Shown one piece after another: positions 5,115 through 51,456 of a stretch of 64,000 nucleotides of DNA (positions within the stretch are counted from its first letter, which is position 1; every line of letters starts with the position of its first letter). The DNA lies in the IMG/VR virus record IMGVR_UViG_2907202186_000003, positions 1 through 64,000 of that record; one strand, written 5' to 3'. The notes under the pieces were generated by a model. That model ran no database searches, was not told the DNA's origin, and worked only from the letters and a program-made list of their open reading frames with translations. The DNA is from a virus (lineage: Duplodnaviria > Caudoviricetes). Position numbers and translations under genes: made by a program.

Positions 5115-5396
5115 CTACTCTAAAATGAACTCATCCAATTTTGCCTCTAGGTCCTCATCGGTTATCTCGACTTCTTCTAATTTAACTAATTCTTCCTCTC
5201 CTATATCTTCAGCACATTTCATGATTTCACTTCCAAGTAATTGAGGCTTCCTTCCCAGATGACCAAATAAAAATTGTCTAAGTGCCTCTCTCATAATGTC
5301 GCTCTGATCATAATAGATAGGTATTTTACTCATTGCTTCTTGCAAATCTTTATCCTTATGTTTTCTTAATCGAGTTCGTATGATCTTTACTTCCAT
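5115..5396 (-). CDS. ParR-like ribbon-helix-helix adaptor
   Basis: Overlaps the end of the actin gene; beta-strand then SDIMREALRQF helix; acidic C-terminal tail. Confidence 0.6.
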   Translation of the reverse strand: MEVKIIRTRLRKHKDKDLQEAMSKIPIYYDQSDIMREALRQFLFGHLGRKPQLLGSEIMKCAEDIGEEELVKLEEVEITDEDLEAKLDEFILE

Positions 5397-6334
5397 AATC
5401 GAACACCCACATTCTCATAACCTCTTATCTGTGATAACTGATCAAAGAGAATTTTGTTTGGTAAATTAATTTGTTCAAATACATTATGGGCAGCACCTCC
5501 ACCAATTAGATGATAATCAAAGTTAATGTTCAGGCTTTCAACTTCATTCTGAATTTGTATCGACAAAGGTCTAAAGGCTTTTTGTATTAACAGTCTAATA
5601 TCACGACCTTCATATCTTCCTTCAATAACACACGTATCCATTTCATAAATGGCAGGTGATTTTCCTACAGCTTTTTGAAGATATGTTTGAAGCAGTTTAT
5701 AAGCTTTTTCTACACCTAGTATGATGCTGGTTGACTCCTTCATAATTTCCATTTTGTCTAATCCAAGGAGGTTCAAAGTATAGAAGCCTAAGTCAATAAC
5801 AAGTATCTTTTTCTTGGCTATACCACTATTGCTAATCTTTCCTTCGGGTGTGAGTAGGAAATCCATTGCTATTCCATAGCCCTGTGGAACTATTTTGTAT
5901 TTATCTATATTTATTTTAATATTGTTTGTTTTATTTTTCCCTTTTTTGATCTTATATGAGTCTGCCTCATTAAGTCCTTCAATCAGTGACATCATGTGTT
6001 CTCTCTGAGTGAAATAGAATTTAACAGGTAACCCTGTGACAAGATTAAAAGGATTGCTGCTATTTAGGTATCCTAATCCAGTCTTCATTAGAACATTCGA
6101 AGTCATCGCTTCAGTTTTATTATCATTTAAAGAGAAGTATTTGATATCACTATGTCTTAAAGCTAATTTGCCAACGAATAAATCATCATTAAAAACAAAG
6201 TCATCTTGCTTTATGTTTTCTTCAAACACTGGCTTCGCCTCTCCATAGATGGATGGCTGAACATAGATCTTATTCTTCTTCTTCCCTTTTGACCAACTAA
6301 ACCCAAGATCAAATACGCATAATTCTGAACTCAT
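5387..6334 (-). CDS. parM: ParM/StbA-family actin-like ATPase
   Basis: Actin motifs DLGFSWSK, TGLP, PQG, IDLGFYT, IGGGA. Confidence 0.88.
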   Translation of the reverse strand: MSSELCVFDLGFSWSKGKKKNKIYVQPSIYGEAKPVFEENIKQDDFVFNDDLFVGKLALRHSDIKYFSLNDNKTEAMTSNVLMKTGLGYLNSSNPFNLVTGLPVKFYFTQREHMMSLIEGLNEADSYKIKKGKNKTNNIKINIDKYKIVPQGYGIAMDFLLTPEGKISNSGIAKKKILVIDLGFYTLNLLGLDKMEIMKESTSIILGVEKAYKLLQTYLQKAVGKSPAIYEMDTCVIEGRYEGRDIRLLIQKAFRPLSIQIQNEVESLNINFDYHLIGGGAAHNVFEQINLPNKILFDQLSQIRGYENVGVRLWK

Positions 6335-7036: not shown

Positions 7037-7416
7037 GATCTGCTCCTTTCTAGGTAAAAGTAAAGTTTTATTAGGATTATTTCTTGGGTAATCGCAGGAA
7101 ATCTATGTATTCGACATCTGTATTGCTTCTAAAACAATCTTTCAAAATTCCAATAAACAGTTTTTTCTTTCTGATCAACAGCTACATATAATTGATGAAC
7201 GTTTTCTTGGTAAAGACCATATACATTATCACAGATCTTTGTATGTTTCGAGTCCAATATTTCTGATAATATTCTTTTTCCTGGTAAGACCCACTGTTTT
7301 TAATGTAGCACCAACCTGAATTCTCTTGTACTTTGGGGAAGCTTGTTTTATTGATTTTTTCGCGTATTTATATAATGCTTTATCCATAGAAATCCTTTCC
7401 TCGTAAAATGGAGTTT

Positions 7417-41798: not shown

Positions 41799-42365
41799 TT
41801 AAGAAATAAATACTTTCGAGAAAATTACATTGTTTACTGTATCATCCATAGTAGCAACATGCTCAATAGTATTCTTTTGCGCTTCAATAACTTTGTCCAA
41901 GTTGGGAATATACATATCAGATAACTCTGATTCGATGTATTTAAAAGCGTAAGGTTTATTTGATCCTATTGCAGAGATACAATCGTTACTGATTAGTTCG
42001 AGAGATTCAAGTTGCTTTTTGGGTGTTCTTAGCTGACAAATCTTAAGAATCCCTTTGCTTCTACCTCCCCATAGCAATATAAATGGATGGTTTTGATATA
42101 TAATCTTATTGGCTGTTCTCAGAATTATTTTACTTGCTTCATCCACATAATCTGATTTATTGAGTGTTTTATATTTTTGATCCAAGGTCATGGCAACATC
42201 ATCGAATATCGCTTTGCTTCCCCATGCAGAAAAGAATAAATTGTCCTCATAGGATTTTATTTTATTGAAATTTTCATCTTCAATATTATTAAACCGGTCT
42301 ACAATTCTTCCGTCAGACATTACAGAAATAAATTGGTTGCAAGCAACTACGGTTATTAGGCTCAT
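41799..42365 (-). CDS. putative Ntn-hydrolase/proteasome-beta-like protein
   Basis: M-S-L-I start, then VMSDGR, resembling the N-terminal nucleophile strand and A-D-x-R motif. Confidence 0.45.
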   Translation of the reverse strand: MSLITVVACNQFISVMSDGRIVDRFNNIEDENFNKIKSYEDNLFFSAWGSKAIFDDVAMTLDQKYKTLNKSDYVDEASKIILRTANKIIYQNHPFILLWGGRSKGILKICQLRTPKKQLESLELISNDCISAIGSNKPYAFKYIESELSDMYIPNLDKVIEAQKNTIEHVATMDDTVNNVIFSKVFIS

Positions 42366-42738
42366 TATTTATCCCTTTCTTATAAAAGTATTATTTCATC
42401 AGATTTACTTATCCTCTAAATGGTTTCCTTAGTGTATTTCTGTTCAAAAAATCAATCACTTCTCTTTTCTTCATGATAAAAACCTTATTATAATTTACTA
42501 AGCAACTTGAACAATAGGGCTGATTATTTGAATTGAAGAGAGGTTTTGCATTTTGATTTGAACAGTTAGGACATTCATAAATAACCCCTAAAACTGTACG
42601 CTTATTCTTATCCCAGTCTTTTGGAGTGCGATATTTTGTCATCTCTTCCCCACCTCATATGATTTCATTTAACAGCGACTCATCTGTTATTATTCGACAT
42701 TAATTATGTATTCACCTTCCGGATAATCCCTTGAATCA

Positions 42739-42767
42739 ATATTATTATATTTACTTTATTATGTCAA
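42739..42767 (-). promoter_or_regulatory. sigma-A-type promoter driving the leftward accessory array
   Basis: TTGACA-N17-TAATAT inside an inverted repeat CCCTTGA...TCAAGGG. Confidence 0.6.
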
Positions 42768-42789
42768 GGGCTTTCTGCCAATTATACGA

Positions 42790-42828
42790 AATTGACTGAC
42801 TTCCTGTATATGGAGGTCAGTCAATTTG
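42790..42828. terminator. hairpin/terminator downstream of the XRE gene
   Basis: AATTGACTGAC...GTCAGTCAATT inverted repeat. Confidence 0.7.
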
Positions 42829-42830
42829 TG

Positions 42831-43115
42831 TTACCAAAAATCACTCAACGATACGTCATAACCTTCTCTTCTCAATTTACTTATGATCTTAAGCTGTGTA
42901 TTGTCCTGGGGATTATGTTCAGTGTCATTACATAGAGAGTATACCGTCTTTCGATTCAATCCTATATTCTTAATCAGCCATTCCTGGCTAATACGATTAC
43001 GATCTATCCATTTGCCAAACCTAGTTCTTCTCTTAAATTCAAATACTCCCATTCCATCCACCCCTTTACTGACTAGGATGGACAAATCTTCGAAAATTAA
43101 TACATGGATTTTCAA
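42831..43115 (-). CDS. XRE-family HTH regulator
   Basis: ISQEWL....GLNRKTVYSLCN; divergent from the tubulin operon. Confidence 0.8.
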   Translation of the reverse strand: MKIHVLIFEDLSILVSKGVDGMGVFEFKRRTRFGKWIDRNRISQEWLIKNIGLNRKTVYSLCNDTEHNPQDNTQLKIISKLRREGYDVSLSDFW

Positions 43116-43239
43116 TTTTATGGGTTATATTGGGCAAGCGTGTCGCAATATGCTATATCATCAACCATCAAACAACGTCTTTCAAAATCATCCCAGACAG
43201 TGCAAGATGCTTGAATATTGATGAGGAGGTGTAATCATC

Positions 43240-43524
43240 TTGGAGAATTACTTCGAATATGTTCTAAGCAGCCTAACCATTGATGACGTATTTATTTTAG
43301 GAGCTTTACAAGAAGCAGAAGCGACAGCTGGATTTAAAGCTGTAAGCAACGCAGATTTGCAGAAAACAGTCGCCTTTACCGAAGCTACTTATCGAAGAAC
43401 AATCAATCGTCTATGTGCTAATAAATTCGTTGAAACAATTAATGTAAAAAAACAGAACTTACTGTATCTTACCGAATATGGTATTGCTGCTGTAACTAAA
43501 TCACTTGAAAGGGTTGGTGCCTAG
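43240..43524 (+). CDS. winged-helix protein (TubR-like position)
   Basis: DL......EATYRRTINRL....FVE...LYLTEYG wHTH pattern; overlaps the tubulin start. Confidence 0.65.
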   Translation: MENYFEYVLSSLTIDDVFILGALQEAEATAGFKAVSNADLQKTVAFTEATYRRTINRLCANKFVETINVKKQNLLYLTEYGIAAVTKSLERVGA

Positions 43525-44606
43525 TGTTTGCGGTAATTGGGCTAGGTCAGGCAGGATCTAATATTGCTGAGGAAGCTCAGAAGCAAGGATATCTATCTGG
43601 AGCAATTAATTACTCTCAGAAGGATTTGGATTCAGTAAATGTTAGTCACAAACTACGTTTACTTGGCTCAGAAGGAGTTGGTAAAAAGAGAGATGAAGCA
43701 ATACAACTATTTCAAGCACAATGGGAAGACGCATTAAGCTTCATTAAAGATAATTTTGCTAACGCGCAAGTCATTGCATTTACCTTCTCGCTATCCGGTG
43801 GTTCAGGAAGTGGTATAAGCCCCATTCTGTTAGAAGTTGCCCTCAACACTATGCCAGACTCCACATTCATAGCATTACCTATAATCCCCGAAGTTGCAGA
43901 ATCTGTTTCAGCTCAAATCAATACACTAAAGGCATTTGAAGAGTTATCACAGTTAAGCATAGCCACATTCCCTATTGATAATCAGCAAACCAGAAACGTC
44001 CATCCATCAATTGGTAAGAATATGCTTCTCGAAATCACCAATAAATCAGCAATCTCTCTCTTAGATACAATTTCTTCTTATACTGATAAGCATTCAAAAA
44101 ATGGAAACTTTGATAAAGAGGATCTGCTTACCATACTTAATAATCCTGGTATTGGGCTAATTAGTGAAGTCTGCATCGCTGCCCTAAATCAAAGTCTCAC
44201 ACTCACTCCTGAAAGTGTTGCCGAGAAGGTACGTCACTCATGGTCAAACTCAGTGTTCACTCCTATTGAATCAAATCACATTTCTAAAGCTGCAATTATA
44301 TTTGACGGCCAAGAATCTCTGATGGAATATATACGACATGATTTAATATTCACTCCGATGCCACTGGAATTGTTTGATGGAAATTACCATGAGCATACCG
44401 GGAAAATTGTCTCTATCATCACTGGTCTTCCATGGTCTTTAAAGCGTTTGTATGATATTGAAAAATCAATAAATACAAGACAAGAACAATTGGTAACATC
44501 AGGCCTAGATTCAAGCTTTCAATCAAAAGTTTCTTCGCTCAATCAACAACAAAAAAACACAGATAGGAAGTCTGTGTTGGATATTTTAAGCAAATACAAA
44601 CACTAA
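43524..44606 (+). CDS. tubulin/FtsZ-family GTPase (TubZ-like)
   Basis: VIGLGQAGSNI, EGVGK, SGGSGSG signature, IDN, NFDKEDL (T7 loop). Confidence 0.9.
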   Translation: MFAVIGLGQAGSNIAEEAQKQGYLSGAINYSQKDLDSVNVSHKLRLLGSEGVGKKRDEAIQLFQAQWEDALSFIKDNFANAQVIAFTFSLSGGSGSGISPILLEVALNTMPDSTFIALPIIPEVAESVSAQINTLKAFEELSQLSIATFPIDNQQTRNVHPSIGKNMLLEITNKSAISLLDTISSYTDKHSKNGNFDKEDLLTILNNPGIGLISEVCIAALNQSLTLTPESVAEKVRHSWSNSVFTPIESNHISKAAIIFDGQESLMEYIRHDLIFTPMPLELFDGNYHEHTGKIVSIITGLPWSLKRLYDIEKSINTRQEQLVTSGLDSSFQSKVSSLNQQQKNTDRKSVLDILSKYKH

Positions 44607-44621
44607 GAGGAGATGAATGGA

Positions 44622-44789
44622 ATGTTTAAAAATGAAATGCTGAATACTTTGGTTGGTGTCCAAAAAGAAGGGGTTCATATCTTCTTAACTGAGGAAGGAT
44701 GGAATGTATTTGTGGCTCTCATGAGCAACGAGGAAACGTTCTATCGGGAGATCAAGGAGATTACAACTACCAATGAGTTGGCTGTGTAA
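44622..44789 (+). CDS. small protein (55 aa) downstream of the tubulin gene
   Basis: GAGGAG RBS, MFKNEMLNTL...NELAV*, followed by a terminator-like hairpin at ~44800-44833. Confidence 0.6.
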   Translation: MFKNEMLNTLVGVQKEGVHIFLTEEGWNVFVALMSNEETFYREIKEITTTNELAV

Positions 44790-44945
44790 AGATAGTCCAG
44801 GGAGGGTTGTCATTAGATGTCCCTTCCCTTTTCTCCTTATGGGTAGACTATGGCTATGTAAATTAGGAACGCTTTGCTCCTAATTTTATGTGGCGCATTC
44901 AAAATTTATGCCTGTTCATGCTTGTTCTAATAAAATTCTTGGGAG

Positions 44946-45356
44946 TTGGTTACGTTGGCTAGAATTGAATCTATGTCATTTAGCCAGTTTTTAAACTACA
45001 GCTGTGAAGCTTCAAAGTTAAAAGACGTCCTAATATCACATCTCAAACGTCACAAGGTTGTGTATAGAGTTGTTGGAGTAACAATCATCATCTTTGCATC
45101 AGGTATAATTGATCCCACTCTCTACGCTTCAGGAACAGGAATCGATGCTGGAGGTCTAAAGATATATCACAAACTCGTTAACCTGGGTAAATGGGTGATC
45201 GTGATCAAGGGAGGATGGGATACAATTCAGAACACCATAAAGGGAGACTTTGACCATGCCAAAAAATCCTTCTTACAATACCTCATTATATACATCATCC
45301 TTCTTGCTCTCCCGTGGAGCCTTGATCAAATTGATTCTGTGTTTAAAAGCATCTAA
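44946..45356 (+). CDS. membrane protein (possibly pilin/VirB2-like)
   Basis: Three hydrophobic segments. Confidence 0.6.
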   Translation: MVTLARIESMSFSQFLNYSCEASKLKDVLISHLKRHKVVYRVVGVTIIIFASGIIDPTLYASGTGIDAGGLKIYHKLVNLGKWVIVIKGGWDTIQNTIKGDFDHAKKSFLQYLIIYIILLALPWSLDQIDSVFKSI

Positions 45357-45374
45357 TTATAAAGGGATGATAAC

Positions 45375-45677
45375 ATGATAATCAGAATTAACAGCATTCC
45401 CTTCCCCAATATACCCCCATCAAATGGAAACCCAATAACGAATGGAATTAGAAGTTGGGCAGAAGAAAAAACCACAGATATATTACTTGGAGTCTTAGAT
45501 TCTATTAGAAATGTATTTATAGATTTCAGTTATTCAGTAGCTTTAGTAGGCTGCGGACTATGTATTCTCTTCTGGGTTGTTGGATGGGATAAAGGCAAGA
45601 AATGGGCGGGAATATTATATCTAGCCAATGTACTGATTAAGTTCCTTCTAATGGGAGGAATGGCTTATGGCTCTTAA
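45375..45677 (+). CDS. small two-TM membrane protein
   Basis: Two C-terminal TM helices; overlaps the ATPase start. Confidence 0.65.
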   Translation: MIIRINSIPFPNIPPSNGNPITNGIRSWAEEKTTDILLGVLDSIRNVFIDFSYSVALVGCGLCILFWVVGWDKGKKWAGILYLANVLIKFLLMGGMAYGS

Positions 45678-48051
45678 ATTAAGCGAATATATTGAGATCA
45701 CAAAACCAGAATACGTCTTTTTAAAATTAAAGCCAAACAATTCTATCCGTAACAACTCAACTCACAAACTTGCTCGTGCCATATCTGGCCTATATAAAAA
45801 CGTCATTGAGAACATCGACAAAAAAGAAGAGATGATGATCAAGTTTTTAGGTAAAGATTTCATCATACCAACTAAAATTACAATCCATACGAATTCAAAA
45901 GTAAGTTACTTCATCTATATGGAACAGAAGAAAATTGAGTTTTACTTCATTGTTCCAAGCCATCAAATCATGTACATCAAGGAGAAAATAAATGATGTAT
46001 GGACTCAGCTGACGGTTGAAGAAGTAACAGAACTCCCTTCCTTCAATGAGGAATCAACCAAGTTCCAGATCCTCTATAAAAACGAAGATGGAATGAGTCT
46101 TGCCACCGATAGACGCAATAACGACCTCCTTCACTCCAATCTAAACGCTATCGAAATGCTTAAGGAAGGCGATAAACTTGGTGTATTCTATAATTTCATT
46201 CCTTCTTCTCAACATGGTTGGAGATATAAACATAAGTCCACAATTGAAAAATTAAAATCTGGTAAACCTGTTGATCGTGATAAGACTGGATGGAGATACA
46301 TGTTTAAATGGGGTATCTCGATCATTGATTCATTAATAAATACCTTATCTGATGCCATATCTGCAGCTGGCACAGCAAACAAAAAATCTGATGAAAGTGG
46401 GTTTTTATCAAGTCTTATTAATTCACTTTCAGGCACAGATAAAGCGAAAGTTAGTGACAGTACACTCAGGAAAGGAACTGCTTCCATCTTATCCACACAG
46501 ATTGTGGTTATGGGAAGCAGTTCAGATCCGCTTAGACAGCGAAATACAGTCAAAAGCTTAGCGCAGAGTTTTGATACGATTAGCGAAGATAATGAACTTA
46601 TTTACAAGCCATACCGGAAAAAATTTAAATTCACTGATTATAATATCAAAGCCGAGAAAATAATGGTTGGCGATGGCGAAGCTCAGAACTTTCTTTCCCT
46701 TGCTGGGAGAGATATTTTAGAGCAATATAATTTTATTGAGAAAGTGGAGACGTTTGAAACTGAAGTACCAGAGGATCTTCGCACCGGAACAATGTGCATA
46801 GGAGAAAATGTTTACAAAGGATCAAAGCAAAAAGCTTTTTTAAGTAATGACACCGAATTTAGAAATTTACTTCTCCTACTTATTGGCCCCACAAGAGCAG
46901 GTAAATCTAATCTAATTGCTAATTTATCAATAGATGCAATAGAGGCAGATGAATGTGTCATTATCTTTGACTTCATTGAAAACTGTGAGCTGAGCGATAG
47001 CGTTTCAAAGTTATTCCCAAAAGAAAAGGTTCTTGAAATACGTTGCGATGACTTTGAAACAATGCAAGGGTTAGGATTTAATGAAGTCGGTCAAAGTAAT
47101 GATGTATTCAAACAGTATGAGAATGCCAAACGTCAAACTGCTAATACGCTTACCCTCATCAATTCCATTAATGCAAGCGATAGTCAGTTAAGTCCCAAAA
47201 TGGAAAGATATTTAGAAAGCGCTAGCCTCATCGTTTTTATTAGTACGGGTAGTATTAAAGATGTGTTTGCTGTTCTGCAGAATCATAATGCGAGAATGAA
47301 ATTCTTGAATAAAGTGCCCAGAAATCAGATAAACAATCTTGAAGAATATATTGATAGCTTACATGAACTAGATGAAACAGATAAAGAAGCTTTGATTGTT
47401 GGTACAAAAACTCACTTGATCACAGGAATCATTGACCGTTTAAACATCTTAAAAAGGAACACCTACATGGAGTTAATGCTTAAAAAAGACACAAAGGATA
47501 ATATTGATTTAAGTTTAGAGATGCAGAAAAACCAATTGATTGTTATTAAGATGCCACAGTCCATGTTTACGACTGACAGTGAAAAAGATATTTGCACTAC
47601 GTACTGGATTACGAAAATCTGGCTTTCGCTTCAGGTTCGCGCTGACCGTATTCGAGATAAGAGTAAACGTACAAAAGTTAACCTCATCATTGATGAACTG
47701 TACCAGGTCGAGAACACTGAACGCTTCGTAACGTCAAAGCTATCTCAAATAGCAAAGTTCATCATGAAACCAATTATTAGTTGTCATTACATAAACCAAT
47801 TGAAGCACATGAGAGATGAACTTCGCAGCGCAAACACATCATACATGTTATTGGCTGGTTGTGATAAAAAGAATTTTGATGAGTTGAGAAGCGAACTCTA
47901 CCCTTTTACAGATGAGGATCTGAAGAATCTGAAAAGGTATCATTCCATAAACTACGTTAAATGTGACCGAGGATATTCAAGATTTATTACTAAGCTTCCT
48001 GGAAAAGTCGAATCAAGAATAAGAAACAAAAATAAACCGTCTTGTGAGTAG
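45667..48051 (+). CDS. large FtsK/HerA/VirB4-VirD4-superfamily P-loop ATPase
   Basis: Walker A GPTRAGKS, IIFD, Walker B LIIDE far downstream. Confidence 0.75.
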   Translation: MALKLSEYIEITKPEYVFLKLKPNNSIRNNSTHKLARAISGLYKNVIENIDKKEEMMIKFLGKDFIIPTKITIHTNSKVSYFIYMEQKKIEFYFIVPSHQIMYIKEKINDVWTQLTVEEVTELPSFNEESTKFQILYKNEDGMSLATDRRNNDLLHSNLNAIEMLKEGDKLGVFYNFIPSSQHGWRYKHKSTIEKLKSGKPVDRDKTGWRYMFKWGISIIDSLINTLSDAISAAGTANKKSDESGFLSSLINSLSGTDKAKVSDSTLRKGTASILSTQIVVMGSSSDPLRQRNTVKSLAQSFDTISEDNELIYKPYRKKFKFTDYNIKAEKIMVGDGEAQNFLSLAGRDILEQYNFIEKVETFETEVPEDLRTGTMCIGENVYKGSKQKAFLSNDTEFRNLLLLLIGPTRAGKSNLIANLSIDAIEADECVIIFDFIENCELSDSVSKLFPKEKVLEIRCDDFETMQGLGFNEVGQSNDVFKQYENAKRQTANTLTLINSINASDSQLSPKMERYLESASLIVFISTGSIKDVFAVLQNHNARMKFLNKVPRNQINNLEEYIDSLHELDETDKEALIVGTKTHLITGIIDRLNILKRNTYMELMLKKDTKDNIDLSLEMQKNQLIVIKMPQSMFTTDSEKDICTTYWITKIWLSLQVRADRIRDKSKRTKVNLIIDELYQVENTERFVTSKLSQIAKFIMKPIISCHYINQLKHMRDELRSANTSYMLLAGCDKKNFDELRSELYPFTDEDLKNLKRYHSINYVKCDRGYSRFITKLPGKVESRIRNKNKPSCE

Positions 48052-48060
48052 GCGGTTTAT
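48032..48060. terminator. bidirectional terminator between convergent operons
   Basis: ATAAACCG-CT...AG-CGGTTTAT hairpin with A/T flanks. Confidence 0.7.
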
Positions 48061-48428
48061 TTATCAAAAAGTTTATCAATTACAATCCCTAAATAATTTG
48101 CTAATGATACCTCAGTGTCAAATTTCACTTTGCTCCATAATAATGTGATTTGGTGCTTATAATTCCTACACGAATAATCTGCAATTAATCGATCATCATG
48201 TTTTGTTTGTTCTATAATTTTAATACCTTTGATTCGCATTTCGTTTTTTACCTCATAAATATCTTTCGTTACTAGATCCTGAATTTCTTCTAATTTAATA
48301 CTATAAACACGAGACATTTTCAAACTGCTTTCCTTCATCTTTTTCTTGTCTAATTCCAATACGTCAAGAAGATAGGGCAATTCTAAATACCTCTTTACGA
48401 TTTTCAAGTCTTCCTCAGTTTGTCTCAT
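48057..48428 (-). CDS. YhjD-like SOS-associated protein
   Basis: LPYLLDVLELD...Y.CRNY pattern; third gene of the polY operon. Confidence 0.5.
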   Translation of the reverse strand: MRQTEEDLKIVKRYLELPYLLDVLELDKKKMKESSLKMSRVYSIKLEEIQDLVTKDIYEVKNEMRIKGIKIIEQTKHDDRLIADYSCRNYKHQITLLWSKVKFDTEVSLANYLGIVIDKLFDK

Positions 48429-48441
48429 CCTTTAACCTCGT

Positions 48442-48777
48442 TCATTGAACTTTCACTGAAATAATCTCGTTGAAATCCACCCATTCAAACCCACAATCAC
48501 TCTCAACCTTAAACTTCCTCTGGATTTGACTTACACTTGTTACAACTCCATTCACTTCGGAATACTCGTACTCTCCAAAAATAATCACCGATATACTTTC
48601 ATGTTCGCTCAAAGAAAGGTTTATGTTTTGAAAAATTAGTTCCCACTCATCTTCATGAATTATCGGTTTAGTTTTCTTTTTGTGAAGCTTTTGATTCTCA
48701 ATGATCCGCTCCCTATGTTGAGGTAACATCATACGACTCGACTCCCATATGCCGTTCCCCTGCAGCTTTTTACTCAT
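48442..48777 (-). CDS. yolD: YolD-like protein
   Basis: WESSRMMLPQHRE...KP; coupled to the Y-family polymerase. Confidence 0.88.
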   Translation of the reverse strand: MSKKLQGNGIWESSRMMLPQHRERIIENQKLHKKKTKPIIHEDEWELIFQNINLSLSEHESISVIIFGEYEYSEVNGVVTSVSQIQRKFKVESDCGFEWVDFNEIISVKVQ

Positions 48778-50030
48778 CTGTAATGACCTCCTATTTTAGC
48801 TGCTCTATCCATCGCCTGCCCCGCACTCGTTAGTGAACTAGCTCTTAAAATGGATATTTCTCCGAAACGATCTTTTATCTCGTCCATAACCCTGTCGACT
48901 GCCCGTAAGTGCTCCTTACTGTTCTCGAAAATAGATATCTGATAAGTGTTTGAATCACTTAAATCAGATAGTGATACACCTACTCGCCTTACAGGTAGTC
49001 CGTTCCAATTCTGATAAAAGAGCCGCTTAGCTATCGCAAATACTTCTTGTGTAATATTTGTTGGATCTGGCAATTTCATTTGACGGTGAAACCCTGTTCT
49101 TATGTCAAAGTCAGCTCCCGATATACCAACAGATACAACAGAACCGTGATACCCCTTTTGCCTAGCTCTACGACAAACCTCCGTACTAATGTCTAATAAT
49201 ACAACTTCTATATCCCTAGCTTCTGAATAGTCACGAGGAAGCGTCATACCGTTTCCTATTTCACGTTGTTGATTGTGTGTAGTTAATGTTACTGGAGAGT
49301 CATCAAGGCCATTCGCAACCCGCCATATAACTTCACCATTTACTCCCCATTTCTTTCTTAGTTTGGATAATGGAGTATTTGCTAAGTCACCTATTGTTAT
49401 AATCCCCATTTTATAAAGATGCTTCTCCATCCTGGAGCCAATGCCCCACATCTTACGGATTGGCTGTTTCCATATGAAATTACTTAATTCATCTTTTCGG
49501 AGGTAATAAACTCCACCATCAATTTTTTTCGCAATCATGTCGCAGCAGAGCTTACTCAATATCTTGTTTTCTCCAATACCTGCTCTCGCATAAATGCCTG
49601 TTTCATTATAAATCTTCTGTTGAATTTGTTTAGCCATATCAACCGCATTATCGGCAAACAAATGCATTGAATTGGTCAAGTCTGCAAACATTTCGTCAAT
49701 GCTGTAGCACTCTACAAGGTCTGTAAATGACTCAACAATCTGTGTTATATGGGAAGATACCTCAATGTATTCTTGCATGTGTGGCTGGACTACAACTGCT
49801 TCTGGACACTTCTGAAGAGCTTGCCATAATACTTCTCCCGTTTCCACACCGAACGATTTTGCAATAGGACAAGCAGCTAAAATAATACCCGATCTTCTCG
49901 ATGGATCTCCAGCAACAACCAGAGGTTCATTTTTATATTTTGGCACTTTTGCCTTTTCAACACTGGCATAGAAACTTTGCATGTCAATTAACATAACAGT
50001 TCTTGGTTTCTTCAACATGCCATCATTCAT
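48774..50030 (-). CDS. uvrX: Y-family translesion DNA polymerase (UvrX/PolY2-like)
   Basis: IDMQSFYASVE, YSIDE, MWGIG, C-terminal KIGGH. Confidence 0.93.
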   Translation of the reverse strand: MNDGMLKKPRTVMLIDMQSFYASVEKAKVPKYKNEPLVVAGDPSRRSGIILAACPIAKSFGVETGEVLWQALQKCPEAVVVQPHMQEYIEVSSHITQIVESFTDLVECYSIDEMFADLTNSMHLFADNAVDMAKQIQQKIYNETGIYARAGIGENKILSKLCCDMIAKKIDGGVYYLRKDELSNFIWKQPIRKMWGIGSRMEKHLYKMGIITIGDLANTPLSKLRKKWGVNGEVIWRVANGLDDSPVTLTTHNQQREIGNGMTLPRDYSEARDIEVVLLDISTEVCRRARQKGYHGSVVSVGISGADFDIRTGFHRQMKLPDPTNITQEVFAIAKRLFYQNWNGLPVRRVGVSLSDLSDSNTYQISIFENSKEHLRAVDRVMDEIKDRFGEISILRASSLTSAGQAMDRAAKIGGHYR

Positions 50031-50176: not shown

Positions 50177-50665
50177 ATGAAGGACAAATTAAAGGGATTA
50201 GTGCTTGGTTTGGCAATTGGGACAATGTTAACAGGAGCAACAGCATTTGCAGCAAATGGAACCACAAATATTAAAGTTGCCATTCAGAAATTAGGTATTT
50301 ATGTTGATGGAACAAAAAAGACTTCAGCTGACGCAATAATTTATAATGGAACGACTTATGTACCAGCACGATCAGTTAGCAATGCAATAGGCAAAGAAAT
50401 TGGGTTGGTTAACGGTGACCTATATATTGGAAAGCAACCCAAAATGACAATAACCGAATCTCAAGCAATTAGTTTGGTTAAGAAAAAATATGGAGTTAGT
50501 TCACCTAAGCTTCATGTTGAAGTCGATCATCTTGAAGGCAACTCTTATGTAGTCCATGTTTATGAAGTAGTTATTGATGATGTTAAGTCTGGCGAAGGTC
50601 ACACTGCAACTTATGGATGGTATTACGTAGATAAATCATCTGGTGCAATAACATCGATGTTTTAA
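50177..50665 (+). CDS. secreted protein with copper-amine-oxidase N-terminal (stalk) domain
   Basis: Signal peptide ending AFA; IIYNGTTYVPARSVS..IG motif; terminator at ~50672-50704. Confidence 0.8.
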   Translation: MKDKLKGLVLGLAIGTMLTGATAFAANGTTNIKVAIQKLGIYVDGTKKTSADAIIYNGTTYVPARSVSNAIGKEIGLVNGDLYIGKQPKMTITESQAISLVKKKYGVSSPKLHVEVDHLEGNSYVVHVYEVVIDDVKSGEGHTATYGWYYVDKSSGAITSMF

Positions 50666-50772
50666 CGAATTAATAAGAGACCTCATAAATATGTGGTCTC
50701 TTATTTGGTTTCTTATGAAAGATTCCTTTTATCTATTCTCACATATCATTTTTTTAAGGAGTTAATTAGTCA

Positions 50773-51456
50773 ATGTTAATGATACGAATAATCCATTCTA
50801 ATTCTGTTGTTCAGTTCGAAATGTTAAACGATTATGCAGAGGAAATGGAAGAATTAATCAAGTCCAAATCCACGAAATATCTGGAACGTTTAAAAGAACT
50901 ATCTAATAAATACAGTGAAGATGAACAAGATGATTTCTGGTATTATAACAGAGAACGCCTAACTCAATTTCACGTTGATTATCCTAACTTACTACGTTCT
51001 TCTATATTAATATCTGCAATTTCTGAATTAGAAAACGTACTTAAAAAAATCAAACAAGAACTAATAAATTATTCGATCTTAGATCCTGAAGACTTTACCA
51101 AAAAGAACAAGGAAGAAAAGGGAAGTTCTATCGAAAAAACACTAAAAATATTCTGCGATAAACTTTCTATTGGGCTAATTTCTGAATTAGATTCATGGAA
51201 CGAAGTAAGATTTTTAATTGATATCAGAAATAGAGTGACACATAGTGTCGGGCAAGTTCATCCTATTGAACAAGAGAGACTTTATAATCTTCTGAGTTTA
51301 ATGGAGGAGTCTGATGATAGAACGATAAGACTCAGTCCCTATCATGAATTAATATTTTTAGAAAATTCATCAACCTTTATTATCAATTCTTGTTTGAAAC
51401 TTTTAAAGAGTATTACAGAGAGCGTATTAACAACCGTTGCTGTATCTAAAAATTAA
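50773..51456 (+). CDS. HEPN-like protein (putative RNase)
   Basis: All-helical, S.LE helix and RNRVTH (RxxxxH) motif; own terminator at ~51461-51490. Confidence 0.65.
   Translation: MLMIRIIHSNSVVQFEMLNDYAEEMEELIKSKSTKYLERLKELSNKYSEDEQDDFWYYNRERLTQFHVDYPNLLRSSILISAISELENVLKKIKQELINYSILDPEDFTKKNKEEKGSSIEKTLKIFCDKLSIGLISELDSWNEVRFLIDIRNRVTHSVGQVHPIEQERLYNLLSLMEESDDRTIRLSPYHELIFLENSSTFIINSCLKLLKSITESVLTTVAVSKN

Follow-up and report, generated by a model that had tools for sequence, protein, structure and literature searches.

A tubulin-type DNA-positioning module beside a VirB4-like ATPase cassette in an SPbeta-like prophage

Why would a phage whose genes run almost entirely along one strand keep a short cluster encoding a tubulin, two membrane proteins, and a large ATPase on the other? 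The question is raised by IMG/VR virus record IMGVR_UViG_2907202186_000003 (Duplodnaviria; Caudoviricetes), of which we analyzed positions 1 to 64,000 (64,000 nucleotides, hereafter the window), and specifically by an opposite-strand island at positions 42831-48051. An initial annotation, made from the letters of the sequence, had proposed that the island is a minimal machine coupling a tubulin filament to a membrane DNA translocase. Our open reading frame (ORF) calls confirm the gene order and strands that it described, namely a divergent XRE-like regulator followed by genes for a winged helix-turn-helix protein, a tubulin, a small ORF, two membrane proteins, and an ATPase. With moderate confidence, we read the island as a composite, made of two phage modules that are separable yet co-occur more often than expected by chance and that share a divergent Cro/CI-type regulator, and we infer their cooperation from the position-specific association between them.

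The first module is readily recognized, and the tubulin and its winged-helix partner prove to be TubZ and TubR, as had been suggested. The 94-residue TubR, a winged-helix centromere-binding protein (43240-43524, plus strand), matches the TubR of pBM400 in a phmmer search of the PDB (4asn; E 2.1e-17, residues 1-89). TubZ, a tubulin/FtsZ-family GTPase of 360 residues (43524-44606, plus strand), is identified by Pfam Tubulin (1.5e-14; 55 bits, cut-off 33), and its best PDB matches, ahead of FtsZ, are the TubZ structures of phage c-st (3v3t/4xcq; ≈2e-15). The protein also matches the PHROG for PhuZ (4.5e-9) and is ≈28% identical to its nearest relative from an isolated phage, Bacillus phage G. Both the GGSG nucleotide-binding loop and residues P150, D152, and N153 (the last two in the T7 region) are invariant across 35 homologs. 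The tubR stop overlaps the tubZ start at 43524, and TubR is invariably found directly 5' of TubZ in relatives, an adjacency kept in ≈25 loci.

Following tubZ on the plus strand is orf58 (44613-44789), which encodes a small acidic protein of 58 residues that carries the motif G-x-x-I-x-LTEEGW, is co-conserved with TubZ, and has no match in Pfam, PHROG, or NCBIfam. Its homologs lie directly 3' of TubZ in eight loci (L036, L037, L038, L033, L040, L041, L042, and L055), whether the cassette is present or not, and one occurs in a cassette-only locus (L035). Because it usually follows TubZ in close relatives with or without the cassette, we assign orf58 to the tubulin module, of which its product is a likely third partner. 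The MerR-like protein TubY ties type III systems to membrane lipid (PMC7762940); family scans gave no MerR match among the island ORFs, and TubY was not sought genome-wide.

The second module, which we call the cassette, ends with an ATPase of 794 residues (45667-48051, plus strand) that contains the Walker A sequence GPTRAGKS and matches phrog_5156 over residues 4-788 (4.3e-87). It had been described initially as an FtsK/HerA/VirB4-type ATPase with two membrane proteins; the superfamily and the partners hold, but the fold is VirB4-like rather than FtsK- or HerA-like. An AF2 model based on an alignment of 62 diverse homologs, across which Walker A residues G412/K413 and residues D676/E677 are invariant, has a predicted local distance difference test (pLDDT) score of 90.6, and its top Foldseek match is full-length TrwK/VirB4 of R388. 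The C-terminal domain aligns to VirB4 (4ag5) with Z 27.9 and a root-mean-square deviation (rmsd) of 3.4 over 340 residues (VIA-align), with TrwB (Z 26.2), DndH-C (26.0), and HerA (24.5) narrowly below, whereas the FtsK motors reach only Z ≈17 across ≈220 residues. More specific still is the N-terminal domain: the first 365 residues, folded alone (pLDDT 85.4) and aligned to 48,161 representative chains, match TrwK/VirB4 (7o42_A) with Z 14.4 and an rmsd of 3.5 over 235 residues, the sole match above Z 8, with the next at 7.7. The only hydropathy segment above threshold, residues 519-537, falls inside the ATPase domain, and none is present at the N terminus. Because both domains are VirB4-like in fold, the ATPase is, as modeled, a two-domain VirB4 look-alike without membrane segments. 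An FtsK/SpoIIIE identity was considered and rejected on these fold comparisons; Pfam and NCBIfam scans of the ATPase gave no FtsK_SpoIIIE family match, and the FtsK/SpoIIIE genes of the host itself are on a different contig.

Sequence models place the ATPase more loosely. A profile search of the PDB aligned it to VirB4 4ag5 with E 0.016, the curated VirB4 sequence models gave no match, Pfam returned just TrwB_AAD_bind (20.6 bits, cut-off 20.5), and the NCBIfam scan produced only a sub-threshold match to SXT_TraD; for the cassette, the protein atlas adds the phylum Bacillota and weak TrwB/TraD labels. VirB4 energizes assembly and transfer in type IV systems. VirB4 itself, however, is not known to pump DNA, and the term membrane DNA translocase therefore exceeds the evidence. 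Separately, the region of the phrog_5156 profile that precedes the P-loop (positions 154-353) matches an FtsK-like ORF of a P. cremeus phage (1.7e-13; L088, G301:C1:99759-100274), which hints at an N-terminal region shared between the VirB4-like and FtsK-like ATPase families.

Two small membrane proteins precede the ATPase. The first, a pilin-like protein of 133-136 residues (44946-45356, plus strand), has its likely start at a TTG codon at 44955, which fits the ribosome-binding site GGGAG, and comprises a long charged leader, a signal-peptide-like segment that ends near an Ala-x-Ala-type site, and a C-terminal transmembrane (TM) segment (hydropathy segments 37-61 and 108-127). The second is a 2-TM hairpin protein of 100 residues in the VirB3 position (45375-45677, plus strand; TM segments 46-73 and 78-98), whose gene overlaps the start of the ATPase gene by 11 nt. 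Neither protein is matched in Pfam (E up to 10) or in PHROGs, NCBIfam, or PADLOC (E up to 0.01), so that the designation VirB2/VirB3-like reflects position and topology alone. For comparison, 80 cassette-centered viral loci were gathered with 13 closer ATPase sequences; these surveys used hidden Markov models that we built ourselves and IMG/VR fragments, their relatives are not independent, and a result of none may hide undetected filament families. The TM-TM-ATPase order is kept in nearly all 80 loci, with homologs of the pilin-like protein directly 5' of the ATPase set. In most relatives, the 2-TM protein is fused to or joined by an M23 peptidase, or the M23 gene adjoins that of the ATPase; such fusions, verified with Pfam Peptidase_M23 (4.5e-27), occur in 46 ORFs across the 80 loci. 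As stated initially, the island has no relaxase or full type IV secretion system (T4SS): Pfam, PHROG, and NCBIfam scans of the island ORFs revealed no VirB6, VirB8, coupling protein, or relaxase.

The cassette is widespread, with 474 clusters at 50% identity, and its members diverge considerably. The window ATPase is ≈21-23% identical to its homologs from isolated phages (22% to that of GBK2, with a tblastn value of 5e-11), and the GBK2 protein is 75% identical to gp32 of SPP1 (PMC6316719). By this sequence path, the window cassette belongs to the gp31.1-gp31.2-gp32 family of SPP1, to which it is linked via GBK2 rather than by direct alignment with SPP1. The SPP1 trio has been described as a possible translocon without an assigned role, and gene 32 is early and nonessential (PMC6316719). 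Apart from that single paragraph in the SPP1 re-annotation, the VirB4-like cassette is unstudied.

Is the proximity of the two modules more than an accident of position? The closest relatives of TubZ and of the ATPase share contigs, and the complete order, with the XRE-like gene divergent from TubR-TubZ-orf58-TM-TM-ATPase, recurs in L037, L038, L047, and L055, with distant ATPase homologs in L057 and L061. After dereplication at 90% identity, the 80 loci formed 49 groups. An actin-like or TubZ gene lies at most 4.5 kb from the cassette in 20 of the 49, and in 19 it is upstream on the same strand (15 actin-like and 4 TubZ). As a positional control, we considered the groups in which both flanks are available, where 10 of 32 have the filament gene upstream and only 1 has it downstream. 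The slot between regulator and cassette is often filled in cassette-only prophages by an actin-like protein (Pfam ALP_N) and a small ribbon-helix-helix (RHH) protein. ALP_N verifies the actin-like proteins of Paenibacillaceae prophages, D6E, phiCp-D, and the virulent SPO1-like phage SP8; the Alp gene of D6E is 1 kb upstream of the cassette, phiCp-D has ParM nearby, and 0105phi7-2 has an RHH gene 5' of the cassette and a convergent ParA-type partition gene 3' of it. Viewed from the tubulin side, 18 of the 24 TubRZ loci of this subfamily carry a membrane ATPase set at most 5 kb downstream, which is the VirB4-like cassette in 7 and an FtsK-like set (M23 peptidase, small TM proteins, a polytopic membrane protein, and an FtsK/SpoIIIE-like ATPase) in 11. 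Linkage between filament genes and the cassette is far more common than position alone predicts, and the involvement of two unrelated filament types and two ATPase types argues for selection, not inheritance alone.

Several observations nevertheless weigh against cooperation between the modules. In a set of 300 genomes from the host's family, the cassette is found in 11 others, at 54-57% identity; both TM genes accompany it in each, and TubZ in none. One further genome has the XRE-like gene and TubR-TubZ-orf58 without the cassette. Taken by itself, the lack of another genome with both would make the modules look unrelated, a reading that the wider surveys overturned. Two phages rated 100% complete (G303 and G304) have TubRZ and neither ATPase family, and 29 of the 49 cassette groups show no detectable filament gene. 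Tubulin and actin are not homologous, and a direct contact with the cassette that both would share is therefore unlikely. Common descent of the related TubZ phages may by itself account for part of the synteny. The stretch from 42300 to 45000 contains no repeat family of the kind expected for a tubC-type iteron array, and the prophage contig carrying the window, when searched, lacked an M23 gene. In addition, two terminator-like hairpins with T-rich tails separate orf58 from the cassette (region 44799-44889, plus strand), one at 44799-44829 (-17.5 kcal/mol) and the other at 44863-44883 followed by TTTTAT (-8.9 kcal/mol). They fold no better than shuffled sequences; the region is 89% identical in two relatives, where the second stem shows a compensatory G-C to A-T change. 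The presence of T-tailed hairpins between the modules, one with a compensatory change, suggests that the tubulin module and the cassette may be transcribed separately or with attenuation. The modules are separable rather than obligately coupled. As for the proposed coupling of tubulin and ATPase, linkage recurs across many phages, but each module also occurs alone, and the two genes are co-conserved in some lineages and not in others.

These findings leave room for the two modules to be mere neighbors. TubRZ-orf58 could position or segregate DNA by itself while the cassette performs an unrelated envelope task, such as superinfection exclusion, remodeling, or secretion of phage proteins, and the two would lie together solely through a common accessory or early region between the lysis and the lysogeny/replication modules. 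We consider this explanation possible, if doubtful. It draws on the solitary occurrence of each module, on the hairpins between them, and on the genes inserted at the junction in relatives (a 56-residue ORF in L033 and an M23 gene in L038). The convergent downstream ParA gene of 0105phi7-2 likewise fits a common plasmid-like region better than a machine, and the cassettes of SPP1, PBC1, and GBK2 have no annotated filament gene nearby, as judged from descriptions and records, the genomes themselves not having been searched. Simple neighborhood, however, does not readily explain why the filament position is so strongly asymmetric, why the same slot is taken by two unrelated filament types, or why the pairing is kept in virulent SPO1-like phages, in which a plasmid or lysogeny region is missing. 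TubRZ phages without the cassette, moreover, mostly have the analogous set of M23, membrane, and FtsK-like proteins.

Under the composite reading that we prefer, the first module would constitute a type III (TubZRC-like) DNA-positioning system in which TubR binds phage DNA and TubZ forms a cytomotive filament. The second would be a T4SS-derived cassette of an exported pilin-like protein, a 2-TM protein, and a soluble hexameric VirB4-like ATPase, with the two small proteins holding the ATPase at the membrane. After induction or infection, the filament could bring phage DNA bound by TubR to the membrane or pole, by analogy with AlpAC, whose filaments push induced CGP3 prophage DNA to the membrane (PMC4446434). 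There the VirB4-like complex would act on the envelope, together with the M23 cell-wall hydrolase in most relatives, and may anchor the phage genome or move a macromolecule across a membrane or septum. Gene identities, folds, synteny, and the recurrent linkage are what we observed; the cooperation, physical or functional, the substrate, and the direction of transport are inferred. A broader conjecture, which we regard as unlikely, is that a T4SS-derived apparatus (VirB2/3/4-like, usually with M23, and with an FtsK-like counterpart in some lineages) operates in temperate and virulent phages of endospore formers, with filaments delivering the genome to it for septal transfer into the forespore or the sister cell. 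If this were true, septal DNA transfer would be a route of phage inheritance without a virion.

The distribution of the cassette bears on the narrower proposal of the initial annotation, namely a dedicated machine in which the filament feeds phage DNA to the ATPase, to be pumped through the septum of a sporulating or dividing cell into the forespore. Two tblastn searches with divergent family members returned 104 and 146 phage records. All 104 of the first are assigned to Bacillus, Geobacillus (including phage D6E), Clostridium, Terrisporobacter, Brevibacillus, or Alicyclobacillus, and 145 of the 146 in the second have endospore-former hosts. The second search also brought in Lysinibacillus, and its one exception is a Microcystis record. 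Phages of Staphylococcus, Listeria, Streptococcus, Lactococcus, and Enterococcus were absent from both. This near-restriction to phages of endospore-forming genera fits a sporulation-linked role, but it is confounded by phage phylogeny. A forespore pump would also accord with the dispensability of SPP1 gp32 for plaque growth, as expected of a function needed only in sporulation, with the M23 wall hydrolase as the usual companion of the cassette, and with DNA-associated neighbors, namely Replic_Relax 3' of the ATPase in SP8 and RHH DNA-binding proteins 5' in many loci. The VirB4-like fold, which FtsK motors match less well, and the lack of a coupling protein, VirB6-like channel, or relaxase among the island ORFs speak against it. 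A sigma-G-like promoter candidate 5' of the cassette (GCATT-N18-CATGCTT) was rejected since it is not conserved in relatives. Taken together, we find such a pump quite improbable.

Far less plausible is that the island, as a moron of the prophage, serves anti-phage defense or exclusion with a HerA/VirB4-type ATPase at its core. PADLOC gave a weak match to mad8 (4e-8), the C-terminal domain resembles DndH-C as well as the HerA of SIR2-HerA and DUF4297-HerA complexes (Z 19-21), and because the island has its own regulator and nearly lacks the repeated palindrome described below, it could be expressed in the lysogen. However, the ATPase has no neighboring nuclease, SIR2, or other effector, its N-terminal domain is VirB4-like with no HerA HAS barrel, and the cassette is kept as an early gene in virulent phages (SPP1, the SPO1-like SP8, and PBC1); with mad8 as the only match, the defense reading was rejected. 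That the island is the remnant of a conjugative element inserted in the prophage, as its VirB4-like fold, its pilin-like and VirB3-like partners, and the M23 hydrolase of its relatives might suggest, is scarcely credible given the lack in the island of a relaxase, VirD4, VirB6, and VirB8, the hundreds of phage loci, some from virulent phages, that keep the three or four cassette genes together, and the want of a DNA match to any plasmid record.

The two modules share a divergent regulator. This small Cro/CI-type (XRE-like) protein is encoded on the minus strand (42831-43115), with a likely ATG start at 43052 that gives a product of 73 residues, and its homologs in relatives are divergent and upstream of TubR, and also upstream of cassette-only loci. 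For the XRE label that it received, the sole support is a sub-threshold match to Pfam HTH_26 (E 0.038). A plus-strand ORF that overlaps the regulator (42883-43221) has no family match and is probably spurious. Between the regulator and tubR, a plus-strand block at 43130-43174 combines a promoter-like sequence (TTGGGC, 18 nt, TGCTATAT) with two adjacent CATCAAMCA repeats (43159-43174) and is kept in L037, L038, L033, and L040. CATCAAMCA occurs five times in the whole window against 1.95 expected, and the block is a candidate TubR operator or tubC.

The boundaries of the island are well defined. In this minus-strand genome, with 91 ORFs of at least 90 residues in the window, no other plus-strand cluster exceeds two genes, and GC and AT skew change sign solely across 44-48 kb of the window. 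The claim that it is the only multi-gene plus-strand operon needs one amendment, a two-gene plus-strand pair at 50177-51456. Strong hairpins bear out the terminators said to bound it. On the left, just after the regulator stop, a 16-bp inverted repeat on the minus strand (42786-42829; -20.1 kcal/mol, z -6.2) was as stable in 0 of 200 shuffles. On the right, a bidirectional terminator-like hairpin (48030-48062; -15.4 kcal/mol and z -6.1 on the plus strand, -10.0 and z -5.0 on the minus) overlaps the ATPase stop codon and is common to the convergent YolD-like/UvrX genes. Both boundary hairpins were revealed by RNA folding and missed by a simple terminator consensus scan. The island had also been described as free of the 18-bp palindrome RTRAAA-N6-TTTYAY, of which the window contains 36 copies against 0.5 expected; this is nearly true, but one copy lies at 46391 within the ATPase gene, the sole copy in the island. 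The other sites are mostly between minus-strand genes, for example at 7054, 20356, 42382, 50715, and 57177. A similar palindrome, GTAAAC-N6-GTTTAC, is annotated upstream of yopS/yopT in the SPBc2 record, and in SPbeta the master repressor MrpR uses the repeated element SPBRE as its operator (PMC10516654). The window palindromes seem more simply read as candidate repressor operators than as integron-like cassette sites.

The window itself is part of a large SPbeta-like prophage, at coordinates 164-228 kb of contig C11 of a 6.6-Mb genome. As the island genes lie on a contig of 1,004,011 bases, the phage is integrated, and it may have an episomal phase after excision; IMG/VR classes the closest relative as a provirus. 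A DNA polymerase of 1311 residues is 56% identical to YorL of SPBc2, a phage with neither the tubulin module nor the cassette, and ribonucleotide reductase, RecJ-like, DnaB-like, and primase genes are encoded as well. Paenibacillus is the source of the closest named homologs, and the prophage host is probably a Paenibacillus. At the DNA level, a search of phage and plasmid collections found no match to the window. Adjacent to the island on the minus strand (48057-50030), genes for a YhjD-like protein (123 residues), a YolD-like protein (111 residues), and a UvrX-like Y-family polymerase (418 residues) are convergent with the ATPase gene, and the same trio is also 3' of the ATPase in the two closest relatives (L036 and L037). 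Elsewhere on that strand, near a PolC-like polymerase, a protein of 315 residues (5387-6334) matches PHROG 691, annotated as partition protein (4.7e-35), and constitutes a second partition-type gene of the window phage.

Several features of the relatives deserve mention in their own right. In Bacillus phage SP8, a virulent SPO1-like phage (L178, 2986-8496), an actin-like Alp of 339 residues is accompanied by three small proteins, two with TM segments, and a 906-residue ATPase homolog, 3' of which is a Replic_Relax protein (PF13814, 4.7e-13). Distant phages have a small RHH-like protein (..V.FN....Q..L..W......NFSGY.K.L) 5' of the cassette, whether an actin-like gene is present or not (L022:6514-6699, L023:6332-6547, L030:7087-7377, L035:7664-7891, and L177:3699-4034). 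It has no Pfam match and could be the DNA-binding component of the cassette or just a regulator. The FtsK-like set downstream of TubZ consists in detail of the M23 peptidase, small 1-TM proteins, a polytopic protein of 400-540 residues (phrog_3750), and an ATPase of phrog_3551, as in L044:11317-16677 and L049:11470-17127 and also in L040, L042, L045, L051, L052, L058, L062, and L063. A record labeled Mycobacterium sp. E3298 (IMG/VR 2808606549, 127.5 kb) contains homologs of the ATPase and of TubZ; it is probably a Bacillota phage contig that was mislabeled or is a contaminant.

Systems that move DNA by means of tubulin or actin have been described in plasmids and in a few phages. Their combination with a membrane ATPase was initially regarded as uncharacterized, and we found no account of it in the literature searched. 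With the present analysis, an anonymous set of hypothetical membrane proteins and an ATP-binding protein becomes a system that can be tested in SPP1, SPO1, and Bacillus subtilis, all of them tractable models. The system repeatedly sits immediately downstream of a phage cytoskeletal module, and does so even in virulent SPO1-like phages, which maintain no plasmid state. It bears on how phage genomes enter spores and on why lytic Bacillus phages encode ParM-like proteins; genome announcements mention, but do not explain, ParM of SPO1 and the FtsK/SpoIIIE-like genes of Bacillus myophages (PMC3853049).

How does the island compare with the systems that it resembles? The cassettes of SPP1 (31.1-31.2-32), GBK2 (GBK2_30-32), PBC1 (gp37-39), and 0105phi7-2 (gp30-32), all of PHROG 5156, likewise place two small membrane proteins before a soluble ATPase of ≈750-900 residues whose C terminus resembles TrwB, VirB4, and FtsK, with the same order and translational coupling. 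The window cassette differs from these in lying behind a tubulin module and in lacking the M23 hydrolase of most relatives. Order and sizes also agree with VirB2-VirB3-VirB4 (TrwL-TrwM-TrwK of R388), with a pilin-like protein of ≈130 residues that has a leader, a small TM protein of ≈100, and an ATPase of ≈800, and a wall hydrolase partner is likewise found in relatives of the window cassette. Unlike a T4SS, however, the island has no VirB6, VirB8, VirB10, VirB11, VirD4, or relaxase, and the likeness of the small proteins is topological only. With FtsK/SpoIIIE, including the phage proteins of PHROG 3551, the ATPase has the ASCE P-loop superfamily in common, and related TubZ phages carry the FtsK-like set at the equivalent position; the window ATPase differs in having a VirB4-type N-terminal domain in place of an N-terminal membrane domain. 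The tubulin module recalls the TubZRC systems of pBtoxis, pBM400, pXO1-like plasmids, and Clostridium botulinum phage c-st, in which TubR is likewise directly 5' of TubZ and of which c-st is the phage-borne precedent. In contrast to those low-copy extrachromosomal replicons, the window element is integrated, no iteron centromere was found in it, and TubZ is followed by the 58-residue orf58 product with no match to a MerR-like TubY. The AlpAC system of the Corynebacterium prophage CGP3 is built on actin instead of tubulin, with no VirB4-like cassette reported next to it. The likeness here is one of function, not homology: in both, an integrated prophage carries its own cytomotive filament together with a DNA-binding adaptor.

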